Positions 8,547 through 21,326 of a stretch of 21,326 bases of DNA are shown here, piece by piece. The notes under the pieces were generated by a model. That model did not search any database. It saw nothing but the letters and a program-made list of their open reading frames with translations, and was not told the DNA's origin. Position 1 is the first letter of the stretch. Every line of letters starts with the position of its first letter. Origin of the DNA: an uncultured Cytophagaceae bacterium (GTDB lineage: Bacteria; Bacteroidota; Bacteroidia; Cytophagales; Microscillaceae); contig CAZKBP010000003.1 of assembly GCA_964551015.1 (NCBI GenBank), positions 1 to 21,326 on the forward strand, given 5' to 3'. The position numbers and the translations under genes were made by a program.

Positions 8547-9068
8547 ATGAGTTTACAGGGAAAAAAAGTACTCATATTAAATCAGGATTATCGAGCTTTA
8601 ACCGTCTGTAGTGTACAAAAAGCCTTTATCTTAGTCTATCTTAAAAAAGCAGAAATGGTCGTGGAGGTTCCTGATGGAAAACTAAGAACCGTTTCTAACA
8701 GCTATCCTTTGCCCTCTATCATCCGCCTTTTTCGTTATGTAAACCTACCTTATAAAGGGGTTATGCTTAGTCGCCAGAATATTTTCAAAAGAGATGGTGG
8801 CAAATGCCAATATTGTGGCTCTACCAAAGATTTAACCTTAGATCACGTGATTCCCCGTTCCAAGGGAGGGCGTTCTAGCTGGGATAACTTAGTATCTGCT
8901 TGCAAAAATTGTAACTCCAAGAAAGGCGACTTTACCCCCGAAGAAGCAAACATGCCGCTCAAACGCCGCCCTTTCAAGCCTTCCTTTATCATGTTCCTGC
9001 GCGACTTCTCCGGACCCGTGGAAGAAGACTGGAAACCTTATCTAGGCAAAAAGGTCAAATATTATTGA
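8547..9068 (+). CDS. Stand-alone HNH endonuclease (COG1403/McrA-like small HNH family)
   Basis: 173 aa. The C-terminal HNH/zinc-ribbon motif is CQYCGS...LTLDHVIPRSKGG...WDNLVSACKNCNSKKGD. A conserved N-terminal domain of about 85 aa (VLILNQDYRALTVCSVQKAFILVYLKKAEMV) is typical of the widespread roughly 170-aa orphan HNH proteins. No methyltransferase or mobile-element gene is adjacent. Confidence 0.8.
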   Translation: MSLQGKKVLILNQDYRALTVCSVQKAFILVYLKKAEMVVEVPDGKLRTVSNSYPLPSIIRLFRYVNLPYKGVMLSRQNIFKRDGGKCQYCGSTKDLTLDHVIPRSKGGRSSWDNLVSACKNCNSKKGDFTPEEANMPLKRRPFKPSFIMFLRDFSGPVEEDWKPYLGKKVKYY

Positions 9069-11192: not shown

Positions 11193-11263
11193 GGTCGTGT
11201 GGCCGAGTGGCTAGGCAGAGCTCTGCAAAAGCTCGTACAGCGGTTCGAATCCGCTCGCGACCT
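11193..11263 (+). tRNA. tRNA-Cys (anticodon GCA)
   Basis: Folded manually. The 7-bp acceptor stem is GGTCGTG/CGCGACC with one G-U pair. U8 and A14 are present. The D-arm has a 3-bp stem and a GG-containing loop. The anticodon stem GAGCT/AGCTC closes the loop CTGCAAA, giving anticodon GCA with U33 and A37. Variable loop is 4 nt. T-arm is AGCGG-TTCGAAT-CCGCT. Discriminator is U73, the expected base for tRNA-Cys. CCA is not encoded (CC then T). A T-run follows. Confidence 0.85.
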
Positions 11264-11481
11264 CCTTTTTATTGCCACCTTTTCAAGAAATCCTTCCTCA
11301 GTTGTTATCTCTCCCCTCCCTACATCGAGACCCTCGTTGTTTCAATTTATAATCGTTCTATATAAGACTACACTCAGGGAAAGTTCTTGAGAGTACTTGA
11401 GTTTTAGCCACTTCTCCCCGAAATTGCAAGAAATTTCTTAACGTTTAAGAGCGGTTTTTCTTGCACATTCCTCGGCCAAAT

Positions 11482-11512
11482 TTTGCCAAATAAAAAATGT
11501 GTTGTAGTATTG
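11482..11512 (+). promoter_or_regulatory. Candidate Bacteroidetes sigma-A promoter for the act operon (-33 TTTG ... 19 nt ... -7 TAgtATTG)
   Basis: TTTG at 11482-11485 and TAGTATTG at 11505-11512 (7 of 8 matches to TAnnTTTG) are separated by 19 nt, within the 19-21 nt consensus spacing. The predicted transcription start near 11520 would give a leader of about 120 nt before the actA ATG at 11638. Confidence 0.3.
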
Positions 11513-11637
11513 CTCGGAGTCCCACAATTAAACAAACAAAGATCCACTCAGCCCGTTAAGGAATAAAGGAAAATTCAGAAAATTTTGAAAGTATAATTTA
11601 TCATAATTATCAGGAAAAATAAAGAGCTTACAATTAA

Positions 11638-12978
11638 ATGCATACGTTCAATCAAATCACAAAATATTCTATCTCTCCAAAGAGATATTTCTTCCTAACG
11701 CTCTTGTTTCTAGGGTTATCCCTAGGGCTAGCTTGGGCACAAGGAGGTGATACAACTGCTACTGACGGTGAAGGAGAGGCTTCTACCGAAGAAGCCACTG
11801 CCACCGGAGACCAGCCCAGCCCTGAGGTATTAGCCAAAGGGGAGGAGCTTTGGGAAAATAACTGTACTTCTTGCCACGCTTTGACCGAAGAGGTGGTAGT
11901 CGGCCCTGGCTTATACAATGTATGGGAAAGAACGCCTAGTCGCGAATGGCGCATCAACTGGATTAAGAACTCCCAAGCGATGGTACAGGCTGGCGATGAC
12001 TACGCTGTCAAAATCTTCAATGAATACAACCAAAACGTCATGACCAGCTTCCCTTGGCCTACCGAGGATATTGAAGCGGTTTTGGATTACATCAAAGTAG
12101 CCAGCGTTGAGGCGATGAATCCACCCAAGGCTGACGGTGGTGGAGGAGATGGAGAAGAGCCTGTTGTAGGAACCAACCCTGCCCTTGGTAACTATTTCAA
12201 CATTTTACTAGGGGTAATGGTCTTGGTACTTGCCTTGATCGTGGTGGTCTTGATCTTGATGCTTTCTATATTGAAGCGTTTCATTGAGCAGAAAGAAGGT
12301 GGACAAGCGGCCGAAGTAGGAGCAGGTGAGGATGAGGAAAAATCCTCTTTCAATCTGGGCAAACTGGTTCAAAACCGCGCTTTCATCAACGGTGTAGGAT
12401 TAGTTTTTACCTTAGTGGTACTAAAAGCCGTCCTAGATAGCCTGATCGGAGTAGGTATTCAGCAAGGATATGCCCCTACCCAACCCATTCCTTTTTCGCA
12501 CAAGCTACACGCAGGAATGTACGAGATCGATTGTAATTATTGCCATACAGGCGTGAATAAAGGTAAATCTGCCGTGATTCCATCCGCCAATATCTGTATG
12601 AATTGCCACAATGCCATCAAGCGTGAATCTCCATATATCAAGAAAATATACGAGCACATTGAGAATGACGAACCAATTGAATGGGTGAGAGTACACAACT
12701 TACCGGACTTGGCATACTTTAATCACGCCCAACACGTCAACGTAGCAGGGCTTGAATGCGAGAATTGCCACGGTGAAATCAAGCAGATGGAAGTAGTGCA
12801 ACAGAGAGCCCCGTTGACCATGGGATGGTGTATCAACTGCCACCGCCAAACGATTATGGATCATGCCGAAGACAATGAGTATTATGATCGTCTGATTGAA
12901 TACCACGATGCGAATAGCAATAATCCTATGACCGTGGAAAACATTGGTGGCTTGGAGTGTTCAAAGTGTCATTACTAA
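11638..12978 (+). CDS. actA: Alternative complex III subunit ActA, multihaem cytochrome c (six CXXCH: N-terminal class-I cyt c module + pentahaem domain)
   Basis: 446 aa. An N-terminal hydrophobic signal/anchor (FFLTLLFLGLSLGLAWA) is followed by a monohaem domain with CTSCH at residues 76-80. A Gly/acidic linker, TM helix (YFNILLGVMVLVLALIVVVLILMLSIL), charged loop of about 35 aa and a second hydrophobic helix come next. The C-terminal domain has five CXXCH motifs (CNYCH, CMNCH, CENCH, CINCH, CSKCH) in the NrfB/ActA-like pentahaem arrangement. It is the first gene of the actABCDEF cluster. Confidence 0.85.
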   Translation: MHTFNQITKYSISPKRYFFLTLLFLGLSLGLAWAQGGDTTATDGEGEASTEEATATGDQPSPEVLAKGEELWENNCTSCHALTEEVVVGPGLYNVWERTPSREWRINWIKNSQAMVQAGDDYAVKIFNEYNQNVMTSFPWPTEDIEAVLDYIKVASVEAMNPPKADGGGGDGEEPVVGTNPALGNYFNILLGVMVLVLALIVVVLILMLSILKRFIEQKEGGQAAEVGAGEDEEKSSFNLGKLVQNRAFINGVGLVFTLVVLKAVLDSLIGVGIQQGYAPTQPIPFSHKLHAGMYEIDCNYCHTGVNKGKSAVIPSANICMNCHNAIKRESPYIKKIYEHIENDEPIEWVRVHNLPDLAYFNHAQHVNVAGLECENCHGEIKQMEVVQQRAPLTMGWCINCHRQTIMDHAEDNEYYDRLIEYHDANSNNPMTVENIGGLECSKCHY

Positions 12979-19105: not shown

Positions 19106-20449
19106 ATGGCAGAAGGACCCAAATTGACCTTAGCCGATGAAAAGATGCAATACGAGTTTACTGCTAAACTCAAGCGTCAGTTGTTGATTGCTGGTGGTAT
19201 CGGAATTGTAATGCTTTTACTTGGATGCGTCCTTTTGGCATTCGGCGGAGGAGACGCACACGGTGCAGGTGGACACGGAGGAGAACACAGTATGGTCGGC
19301 GGTGGAGGAGAAGAAGCAGGAGGACACGGATACCACTGGACGACACGTTTGTGGGCAAATCTCTGGCTCTGCGCAGTGTATTTTAATGGAATAGCCTTGG
19401 TGGGCGTCTTTTTCGTGGCAGTAAACTATGTAGCTTGGGCAGGTTGGTCTGCGCTGATCAAGCGTATACCCGAAGCATTCGGTTATTTTATGATGTTTAC
19501 AGCACCCATTATTATTCTGGTATTCTTTCTCTCTGGGGATAGTCTTTTCCACTGGAAAGCCGCAGGAATCACTGATCCGACAAGTGCCAATTATGATCCC
19601 ATTATTGCTGGGAAGTCAGGTTATTTGAATCTTCCTTTTTATACCATCCGCATGATTATCTACTTTGCGGCTTGGCTTGGTTTATTCTTCTTCCTAAGAA
19701 AGCTTTCTCTACAAGAAGATCAACTAACCGATTATAAAGGCTATTTAGAAAATCCCAAGATTTACAATAAAATGGTGTATTTCTCGGCGGTTTTTATCGT
19801 GATATTTGCCGTTACAAGTTCTACGGCTGCTTGGGATTGGGTAATGTCTATTGATACACACTGGTTTAGTACGATGTTCGGTTGGTACAATTTCGCCAGT
19901 TGGTTTGTAGCAGGATTGGCAACCGTTACCTTAGCGGTAATCTACTTAAAGGAGCAAGGCTACCTGAAGCTAGTAGGGCAGCATCACCTGCACGATTTAG
20001 GTAAATTTATGTTCGCGTTCAGCATTTTCTGGACTTACATTTGGTTTTCACAATTTTTGCTGATCTACTATGCACATCTTCCCGAAGAAACGATCTATTT
20101 CTATCCTCGTTTGTTTGGTGATTACAGAGGGCTCTTCTTTCTAAATATTATCATCAATTTTGCTTTCCCATTCTTAGCTTTGATGACCAAAGAGTCCAAA
20201 CGGACTATGATCTTTTTGAAAATTGTGGCCATTGCTATTTTGATCGGACATTACTTTGATTTCTATCTGATGATTATGCCTGGCACGGTTGAATCTAATG
20301 CGGGCTTCGGTTTGGTGGAATTTGGCACTTTGTTAATCTTTATCAGTGCTTTCATCTATTTCTTTGCTAGCAACCTAAGTAAAGTACCTTTGATTGCGAA
20401 GAATCACCCTTTCATCAAGGAAAGTATGCATTTTACGCAGTTTAATTAA
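19106..20449 (+). CDS. actF: Alternative complex III subunit ActF (second NrfD-like membrane subunit)
   Basis: 447 aa polytopic membrane protein of about 10 TM helices, paralogous in architecture to ActC and last in the act cluster. It has a His/Gly-rich loop between TM1 and TM2. Confidence 0.85.
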   Translation: MAEGPKLTLADEKMQYEFTAKLKRQLLIAGGIGIVMLLLGCVLLAFGGGDAHGAGGHGGEHSMVGGGGEEAGGHGYHWTTRLWANLWLCAVYFNGIALVGVFFVAVNYVAWAGWSALIKRIPEAFGYFMMFTAPIIILVFFLSGDSLFHWKAAGITDPTSANYDPIIAGKSGYLNLPFYTIRMIIYFAAWLGLFFFLRKLSLQEDQLTDYKGYLENPKIYNKMVYFSAVFIVIFAVTSSTAAWDWVMSIDTHWFSTMFGWYNFASWFVAGLATVTLAVIYLKEQGYLKLVGQHHLHDLGKFMFAFSIFWTYIWFSQFLLIYYAHLPEETIYFYPRLFGDYRGLFFLNIIINFAFPFLALMTKESKRTMIFLKIVAIAILIGHYFDFYLMIMPGTVESNAGFGLVEFGTLLIFISAFIYFFASNLSKVPLIAKNHPFIKESMHFTQFN

Positions 20450-20564: not shown

Positions 20565-21326
20565 ATGACGAATATAGTAATCGGATTTATAGGAGTACTG
20601 ATCTTGGTCATACTCTTTATGTTATTCAGAATACAGTCGCTAGTTTCTGTTGCGAAGAAGTCTGACCAAAAGGGTGGAGGGACTAGCAACAAAATTAATG
20701 CGGCTCTTATGCTAATCGTACCTACAGTAGGATTAGCCTTAGCAGTTTGGTATTCTAGTGTCGCCTCAGAATCGTTTCTGCCAGCACCTGCCTCAGAGCA
20801 CGGTATAGTTACTGACAACCTGTTTTGGGTAACCATTGCTGTTATTTCGGCTATGTTTATCATCACCAATGCAGGTTTGTTTTGGTTTGCTTATCGTTAT
20901 CAGTACAAGGAAGGAAGAAAAGCAACTTTCTATCACGATAATCCTAAACTGGAAGTTTTTTGGACAATCGTTCCAGCGGTAATTATGGCCTTACTGGTCT
21001 TTTTTGGATGGAAAGCTTGGACAGATATTATGGAAACCGATCCCCCAGATGAAGCCATGAAAATAGAGATCATGGGTAAGCAATTTGCTTGGTTGGTACG
21101 CTATCCCGGAAAAGACGGACAGCTCGGCGACTATGATTATCGTCTAATTGATGATGCGGCTGGTAATGACTTTGGGATCGACTTTGAAGACAAAGCATCC
21201 TTTGATGACTTTTCACCTCGTGAAATGCACATCCCCGTTAACAAGCCAGTATTATTGAAAATTAGAGCGAGAGACGTGTTACACAGCGTTTTTGCTCCAC
21301 ATTTTCGCCTAAAAATGGATGCAGTA
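20565..21326 (+). CDS. coxB: Cytochrome c oxidase subunit II (caa3-type), 5' partial - runs off the window end
   Basis: Not in the supplied ORF track because there is no stop before the window end. I translated it by hand from ATG 20565: MTNIVIGFIGVLILVILFML... with two TM helices, then ...MGKQFAWLVRYPGKDGQLG...LKIRARDVLHSVFAPHFRLKMDAV, the conserved subunit II periplasmic domain start. It lies 115 bp downstream of actF on the same strand. Confidence 0.9.
   Translation, partial: MTNIVIGFIGVLILVILFMLFRIQSLVSVAKKSDQKGGGTSNKINAALMLIVPTVGLALAVWYSSVASESFLPAPASEHGIVTDNLFWVTIAVISAMFIITNAGLFWFAYRYQYKEGRKATFYHDNPKLEVFWTIVPAVIMALLVFFGWKAWTDIMETDPPDEAMKIEIMGKQFAWLVRYPGKDGQLGDYDYRLIDDAAGNDFGIDFEDKASFDDFSPREMHIPVNKPVLLKIRARDVLHSVFAPHFRLKMDAV

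Follow-up and report, generated by a model that had tools for sequence, protein, structure and literature searches.

How many haems an ActA subunit of alternative complex III (ACIII) carries, and where in the protein it carries them, is the question raised by one gene of the window, by which we mean the whole 21,326-nt stretch of DNA that was analysed. The gene encodes an ActA in which a cytochrome c module and two internal transmembrane (TM) helices stand ahead of the pentahaem domain. An earlier note on this DNA had taken the module for an unusual extra, built into an otherwise pentahaem protein and possibly serving as a tethered donor to an adjoining caa3 oxidase, with the caveat that ActA proteins of Bacteroidetes might normally take this longer form. 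Here, we describe the modules of the protein, compare them with those of ActA proteins of known structure and of related genomes, and then consider which oxidase the additional haem would serve and by which route electrons may reach it.

The gene is a single, uninterrupted open frame (Table 1), whose translation contains six CXXCH motifs that between them account for every one of its 12 cysteines; both the number of motifs and the placing of the first had been given exactly by the earlier note. When the protein was shuffled, more than one CXXCH appeared in none of 20,000 shuffles and exactly one in 192, which rules out chance as the source of the six motifs, and from these binding motifs six covalent haems c are predicted for mature ActA. 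In order, the modules are a signal peptide, a class-I cytochrome c domain, a flexible linker, two TM helices flanking a charged loop, and the pentahaem domain.

Table 1. Features of the actA locus: residues of ActA, nucleotide positions in the window, strand and basis or remark
Feature	Residues	Position (nt)	Strand	Basis or remark
actA, ACIII six-haem cytochrome c subunit	1-446	11638..12978	+	446 aa + stop; 6BTM_A match E 1e-81, residues 24-446; 7939 homologues
Signal peptide (...LGLAWA/Q)	1-34	11638..11739	+	Hydropathy; predicted cleavage before Gln35
Acidic low-complexity spacer	35-62	11740..11823	+	0 K/R, 7 D/E; pLDDT <50 at residues 32-56 (AlphaFold2)
Class-I monohaem cytochrome c domain	63-155	11824..12102	+	PF00034; candidate axial Met135 at nt 12040-12042
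CXXCH motif 1, CTSCH	76-80	11863-11877		In the cytochrome c domain
Flexible Gly/acidic/Pro linker	156-185	12103..12192	+	Contains KADGGGGDGEEP; pLDDT <50 at residues 167-180
TM helix 1, periplasm to cytoplasm (predicted)	186-211	12193..12270	+	Kyte-Doolittle up to 3.6; AlphaFold2 helix 181-220
Charged loop, cytoplasmic (predicted)	212-247	12271..12378	+	36 residues, 6 K/R + 7 D/E
TM helix 2, cytoplasm to periplasm (predicted)	248-272	12379..12453	+	Kyte-Doolittle up to 2.2; AlphaFold2 helix 247-273
Pentahaem ActA domain, five CXXCH	273-446	12454..12975	+	Matches solved ActA chains
CXXCH motif, CNYCH	299-303
CXXCH motif, CMNCH	320-324
CXXCH motif, CENCH	374-378
CXXCH motif, CINCH	398-402
CXXCH motif, CSKCH	441-445
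actB, molybdopterin-like + Fe-S domains, 1064 aa		13053..16247	+	Pfam Fer4 families, Molydop_binding; N-terminal RRDFLK, Tat-like motif
actC, NrfD family, 484 aa		16287..17741	+	Pfam PF03916
actD, 178 aa		17767..18303	+	Pfam PF11821 ActD, E 2.6e-58
actE, monohaem cytochrome c, 245 aa		18328..19065	+	CYPCH at residue 133 of ActE; lipoprotein-like N-terminus ...AFTAC
actF, distant NrfD-like paralogue of ActC, 447 aa		19106..20449	+	Conserved operon position; weak ActC similarity E 0.005
Cytochrome oxidase subunit II, aa3-type		20565..21326	+	First 254 aa inside the window; complete protein 354 aa

The N-terminus of the protein (about residues 18-34) has a weak, signal-peptide-like hydrophobicity in Kyte-Doolittle means over 19 residues, and an alignment of 42 ActA homologues shows no change at Gln35 and next to none at Ala34. 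Because this conservation fits the Q-rule described for signal peptidase I substrates in Bacteroidetes (PMC5837995), this weakly hydrophobic N-terminus is most likely a signal peptide that is cleaved off before Gln35. The acidic spacer that follows occupies the place of an Ala/Pro-rich stretch in the ActA of Flavobacterium johnsoniae, and leads into the domain that the earlier note had set apart as a separate monohaem unit. A Cytochrom_C match, which the note had anticipated, was indeed obtained, with PF00034 covering residues 66-153 at 31.2 bits against a cut-off of 21.3. Across the 42 homologues C76, C79, H80 and M135 are invariant, as are G68, G89, P90, R98, W104, N111, G119 and D120, and since these ligand and core residues are retained in a domain whose identity ranges from 68% down to 37%, the domain is under selection as a haem-binding cytochrome. 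Met135 lies 55 residues beyond the CXXCH motif, in keeping with a class-I cytochrome c; the haem would be held by C76 and C79, with His80 as one axial ligand and Met135 as the probable second.

We know of no experimental structure of the ActA N-terminal domain, and its fold was therefore considered from prediction. The AlphaFold2 model of residues 55-165, made with the homologue alignment, has a mean pLDDT of 93, with helices 8-21 and 88-106, and all of the top 50 matches listed by Foldseek against the PDB are monohaem c-type cytochromes or subunits carrying one, so that the first CXXCH region does model as a cytochrome c fold. The best of these matches is the Rhodothermus marinus monohaem cytochrome c 3CP5 (TM 0.78, rmsd 2.5 Å over 105 columns, 28% identity, E 5e-6), which is also found by sequence (E 7.9e-07 against ActA). 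Unlike the present domain, 3CP5 is a stand-alone protein that is not fused to ActA; the similarity between the two suggests that the fused domain and cytochromes of the 3CP5 type may share an origin.

Behind this domain come the Gly/acidic linker, the TM helix, the charged loop and the second hydrophobic helix that had been read from the sequence earlier, and on which composition, hydropathy and AlphaFold2 agree. TM helix 1 aligns with the corresponding hydrophobic segment of F. johnsoniae ActA (6BTM chain A, 6BTM_A). TM helix 2 is, on alignment, the counterpart of the lone N-terminal anchor of short ActA proteins, because the matches to the short chains 6F0K_A and 8K9E_A begin at query residues 275-276, right past the helix. 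Hydropathy, AlphaFold2 and the 6BTM_A alignment together show the two haem domains to be separated by a hydrophobic hairpin, which would anchor the N-terminal one in the membrane, as in the six-haem ActA of Bacteroidota. The full-length AlphaFold2 model has a mean pLDDT of 63, with low confidence at residues 32-56, 167-180 and 224-234, and is poor in its pentahaem part (pLDDT 33-60), as is expected of a model without cofactors. Haem c is attached in the periplasm, during cytochrome c maturation, and only one topology is consistent with this, in which the cytochrome c domain lies outside, TM helix 1 runs inward, the loop is cytoplasmic, TM helix 2 runs outward and the pentahaem domain is again outside. 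We infer this out-in-out arrangement, including the cytoplasmic placing of the loop, from the need for both haem c domains to be periplasmic, a location that the earlier note had likewise proposed for them.

The pentahaem domain itself is of a familiar kind, with multihaem c7/c3 families of Pfam covering residues 280-445 and all five C-terminal CXXCH motifs invariant among the 42 aligned homologues. Its five motifs had been assigned earlier to the usual pentahaem ActA, and four solved chains agree, with E-values from 1e-30 to 1e-81. The best of them is F. johnsoniae ActA (6BTM_A, 444 aa, E 1.1e-81), to which query residues 24-446 align, an alignment that takes in the pentahaem domain and the two hydrophobic segments as well as the cytochrome c domain, whose motif in F. 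johnsoniae reads CAACH, whereas the short chains 8K9E_A (E 1e-41), 6F0K_A (1.7e-39) and 6LOD_A (7.5e-30) match residues 275-446 only. These short proteins, from R. marinus (6F0K_A, 211 aa) and Roseiflexus castenholzii (6LOD_A, 226 aa) and in the 8K9E structure (8K9E_A, 219 aa), have a homologous pentahaem domain and the TM helix that precedes it; they carry five haems on a single N-terminal anchor and are without the cytochrome c domain, TM helix 1 and loop of the present ActA. The Rhodothermus subunit is thus the single-anchor pentahaem protein that the earlier note had described, and the comparison that it proposed finds the N-terminal module present in 6BTM_A and absent from 6F0K_A. With 446 aa, six CXXCH motifs and two internal helices, the present ActA falls outside that single-anchor type (about 210-230 aa, exactly five CXXCH), its N-terminal 270 residues being extra relative to the R. 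marinus and Roseiflexus proteins.

F. johnsoniae ActA and the present protein are of nearly equal length (444 and 446 aa) and have the same order of modules, and they share a VMTSFP methionine motif and a C-terminal CxKCHY ending; in both organisms an actABCDEF operon is followed by an oxidase without a cytochrome c domain. The differences are those of an orthologue from a different order, with diverged linker and spacer sequences and no functional difference evident. The gene is almost certainly an orthologue of F. johnsoniae actA, encoding the Bacteroidota-type six-haem subunit of ACIII (a menaquinol:cytochrome c/oxidase oxidoreductase), and nothing in the present data was found to contradict this assignment.

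The same architecture is widespread. A homologue search of a large protein collection returned 7939 matches at E ≤ 1e-5, of which the best 120 clusters were characterised: their lengths run from 399 to 544 aa, all have PF00034 together with multihaem families, and 119 of the 120 have exactly six CXXCH motifs, the remaining one (P0038) having seven, with two tandem N-terminal modules. Among species-representative genomes 80 loci were returned, every one with six CXXCH motifs in its ActA and with a match that starts no later than query residue 72 and runs through 446. By title nearly all of these 80 loci are from Bacteroidota (among them Cytophagales, Cyclobacteriaceae, Hymenobacter, Chryseolinea, Emticicia, Arcicella, Chitinophaga, Flavobacteriales), and wherever the contig is long enough the order actA-B-C-D-E-F-coxII is kept. 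The nearest protein cluster is 64% identical and the best genome locus 57%, with the nearest genomes being Cytophagales/Microscillaceae-like; the 446-aa protein itself already has a public database entry, P0001, at 100% identity. Nor is the architecture new to the literature, since F. johnsoniae ActA is a six-haem subunit with its sixth haem in a mobile N-terminal domain that is anchored to the membrane, a domain described although not resolved in the 6BTM cryo-EM map (PMC8552683, Lorencik et al. 2021). In Bacteroidota, ActA is as a rule a membrane-tethered protein with six haems; the earlier caveat was well founded, and the view of the module as an unusual extra does not hold. The present protein is one further divergent orthologue, of use for comparative and modelling work and of low interest as a discovery. 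For many such entries, database names like ‘cytochrome c3 family protein’ or ‘pentaheme cytochrome subunit’ undercount the haems.

On the Pfam signatures of the downstream genes and their order, actA is the first gene of an actABCDEF operon and coxII is the next gene along; ActF, for its part, gave no Pfam match. The window ends within coxII, and a public 7.8-kb contig (L083), identical to the window across the whole 6537-nt overlap, completes it. The full CoxII has the CuA motif CTEVCGRGH, Pfam COX2_TM and COX2 as its only domains, and no CXXCH anywhere in its 354 aa. The adjoining oxidase is an aa3-type and not a caa3-type enzyme, because its CoxII is without a haem c motif, and the same pairing recurs in all 60 related loci, where a six-haem ActA is accompanied by a CoxII lacking haem c (none of the 60 with a CXXCH). 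Upstream of actA lie rpsA and a tRNA-Cys gene. A scan of this upstream region with Rfam gave the tRNA as its sole match, no terminator-like site was found there, and a sigma-70-type promoter scan, a model inappropriate for Bacteroidota, scored weakly above shuffles.

In caa3 oxidases the job proposed for the ActA module is done by a built-in class-I cytochrome c domain of CoxII, which donates to CuA; an example is chain B of the Thermus thermophilus structure 2YEV, with a faint sequence match to the present ActA (E 0.15). That domain sits on the oxidase, whereas the present module sits on the quinol oxidoreductase. R. marinus ActA has no such N-terminal domain, and its partner caa3 oxidase has a haem c of its own (PMC8552683). 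The fused ActA domain would thus take the place of the cytochrome c domain borne by subunit II of caa3 oxidases and absent from the oxidase here.

Could the module nevertheless be something other than a working part of a known protein? Measured against the R. marinus and Roseiflexus subunits, the additional N-terminal 270 residues could be taken for a novel haem module, added to an ActA that otherwise has five haems and one anchor, and feeding an adjoining caa3 oxidase, but the precedent of 6BTM_A, the published description and the recurrence of the architecture in the best clusters and in all 80 loci dispose of the novelty, and a CoxII without CXXCH disposes of the oxidase type, so that we reject this reading, on both counts, as highly improbable. 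Only slightly less improbable is that the module is vestigial and binds no haem, or that it is cleaved off as a soluble cytochrome c. The domain is invisible in the F. johnsoniae cryo-EM map (PMC8552683) and the disordered linkers are possibly protease-sensitive, yet a mobile, tethered domain would also give absent density. The CXXCH, Met135 and several core residues do not vary among the 42 sequences despite the divergence of the domain, which models as an intact class-I fold, and six haems are counted for ActA in the literature (PMC8552683); with ligands, fold and haem count all against it, this reading too was rejected. An assembly or gene-calling artefact that joined actA with an independent cytochrome c gene has next to no probability and is likewise rejected: we found nothing in its favour, the frame is open throughout, contigs of 3.6-4.1 kb from two separate sequencing runs encode exactly this 446-aa protein, and the fusion recurs in 80 independent genomes.

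For the six-haem orthologue, the role of the additional haem is best approached through F. johnsoniae, where Sun et al. (2018), as their work is summarized in PMC8552683 and by Sousa et al. (2018), have the sixth-haem domain take up electrons from ActE and ferry them to cytochrome aa3. Briefly, the ActA precursor would be exported by Sec and lose its signal peptide before Gln35, after which some 30 disordered residues would tether the periplasmic cytochrome c domain to TM helix 1, and the pentahaem domain, back in the periplasm after TM helix 2, would sit on ActB. In the F. johnsoniae model, menaquinol would be oxidized at ActC and electrons would pass from there to the [3Fe-4S] cluster of ActB and on to the five-haem wire of ActA. 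From the wire they would move to the haem of ActE, or straight onward from haem 5, and so to the mobile N-terminal sixth haem, which would then swing to CuA of the adjoining aa3 oxidase. We consider such a shuttle probable for the present protein, on the strength of its homology to F. johnsoniae ActA (moderate identity, E 1e-81) and of the published proposal; orthologue identity and shuttle, taken together as one account, are very probably right. The relay to an oxidase that the earlier note had suggested accordingly agrees with the published F. johnsoniae model, while the caa3 enzyme that it named as the recipient gives way to an aa3 oxidase.

How ActE enters this scheme can be read in more than one way. 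The same protein could be wired differently, with the sixth haem fed directly by haem 5 and ActE bypassed, in which case ActE would buffer electrons or lead them off to other acceptors in the periplasm. In F. johnsoniae deletion of actA abolishes aa3 activity, whereas deletion of actE leaves it unimpaired, and a bypass of ActE was raised on that occasion by Lorencik et al. (PMC8552683); with a spacer of 28 residues on one side and a linker of about 30 on the other, the sixth-haem domain would moreover have a long reach. Against this, no related locus of sufficient extent lacks actE, and deletion of the gene slows growth, so that we regard the direct wiring as rather unlikely. It is a variant of the best explanation and not a different identity for the protein, and both routes fit the sequence.

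The shuttle through a tethered sixth haem also lends itself to an evolutionary reading, which we offer tentatively, as possible rather than probable. Given that in all 60 loci the six-haem ActA goes with a CoxII that has no haem c, the actA of Bacteroidota may have captured a free monohaem cytochrome c of the Rhodothermus type, along with an extra TM helix, and CoxII may in strict exchange have lost its own cytochrome c domain. The central element of this reading, that the ActA module functionally replaces the caa3 domain, has already been published. The tethered domain so acquired could bypass ActE entirely, and lineages with seven CXXCH motifs, such as that of P0038, would extend the relay further.

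Outside the window, P0038, an ActA homologue of 544 amino acids, carries seven CXXCH motifs. Here, two class-I cytochrome c modules lie in tandem (CSACH at residue 54 and CAVCH at residue 173) and are followed by the transmembrane hairpin and then the pentahaem domain, a layout found in this cluster alone (1 of the 120 ActA clusters listed). The homologues with six CXXCH motifs go by a variety of names in their source databases, namely ‘cytochrome c3 family protein’, ‘c-type cytochrome’, ‘mono/diheme cytochrome c family protein’ and ‘pentaheme cytochrome subunit’, the last of which undercounts the haem motifs.

Among the protein clusters listed, the closest to the ActA of the window shares 64% identity with it, while the top locus in a species-representative genome shares 57%, and the source of the window looks like a divergent Cytophagales/Microscillaceae-like lineage. 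Two public runs, SRR6462993 and SRR6462995, contain identical DNA.

The features discussed below are collected in the table. Neither an Rfam match nor a terminator-like site was found in the non-coding stretch that precedes actA. Nothing supports the ORF antisense to actA as a gene. Further upstream, the stand-alone HNH endonuclease-domain ORF is flanked by an NlpC/P60 peptidase gene and rpsA.

Features around the act operon (window coordinates unless stated otherwise)
Feature	Position	Strand	Remarks
HNH endonuclease-domain ORF	8547-9068	+	173 aa; HNH and HNH_5 in Pfam (E about 2e-17)
tRNA-Cys(GCA) gene	11193-11265		between rpsA and actA
Non-coding stretch	11266-11637		~370 nt; between tRNA-Cys(GCA) and the actA start codon
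Antisense ORF	11652-11957	-	101 aa; entirely within actA
ActF	19106-20449	+	
Oxidase subunit I (CoxI)	6897-7838 of L083, a 7.8 kb public contig		just past the window end; same organism

At the other end of the locus, CoxI begins with a His/Asp-rich stretch, MATESHTAHDHDLHIGHDHDHEHHEE, which could constitute a metal-binding extension at the N-terminus of this subunit. For ActF, a Pfam search at E <= 1e-3 returned zero matches; ActF and the NrfD-family protein ActC, described in the literature as homologous, show only weak similarity by BLASTP, with 21% identity over 152 residues (E 0.005).
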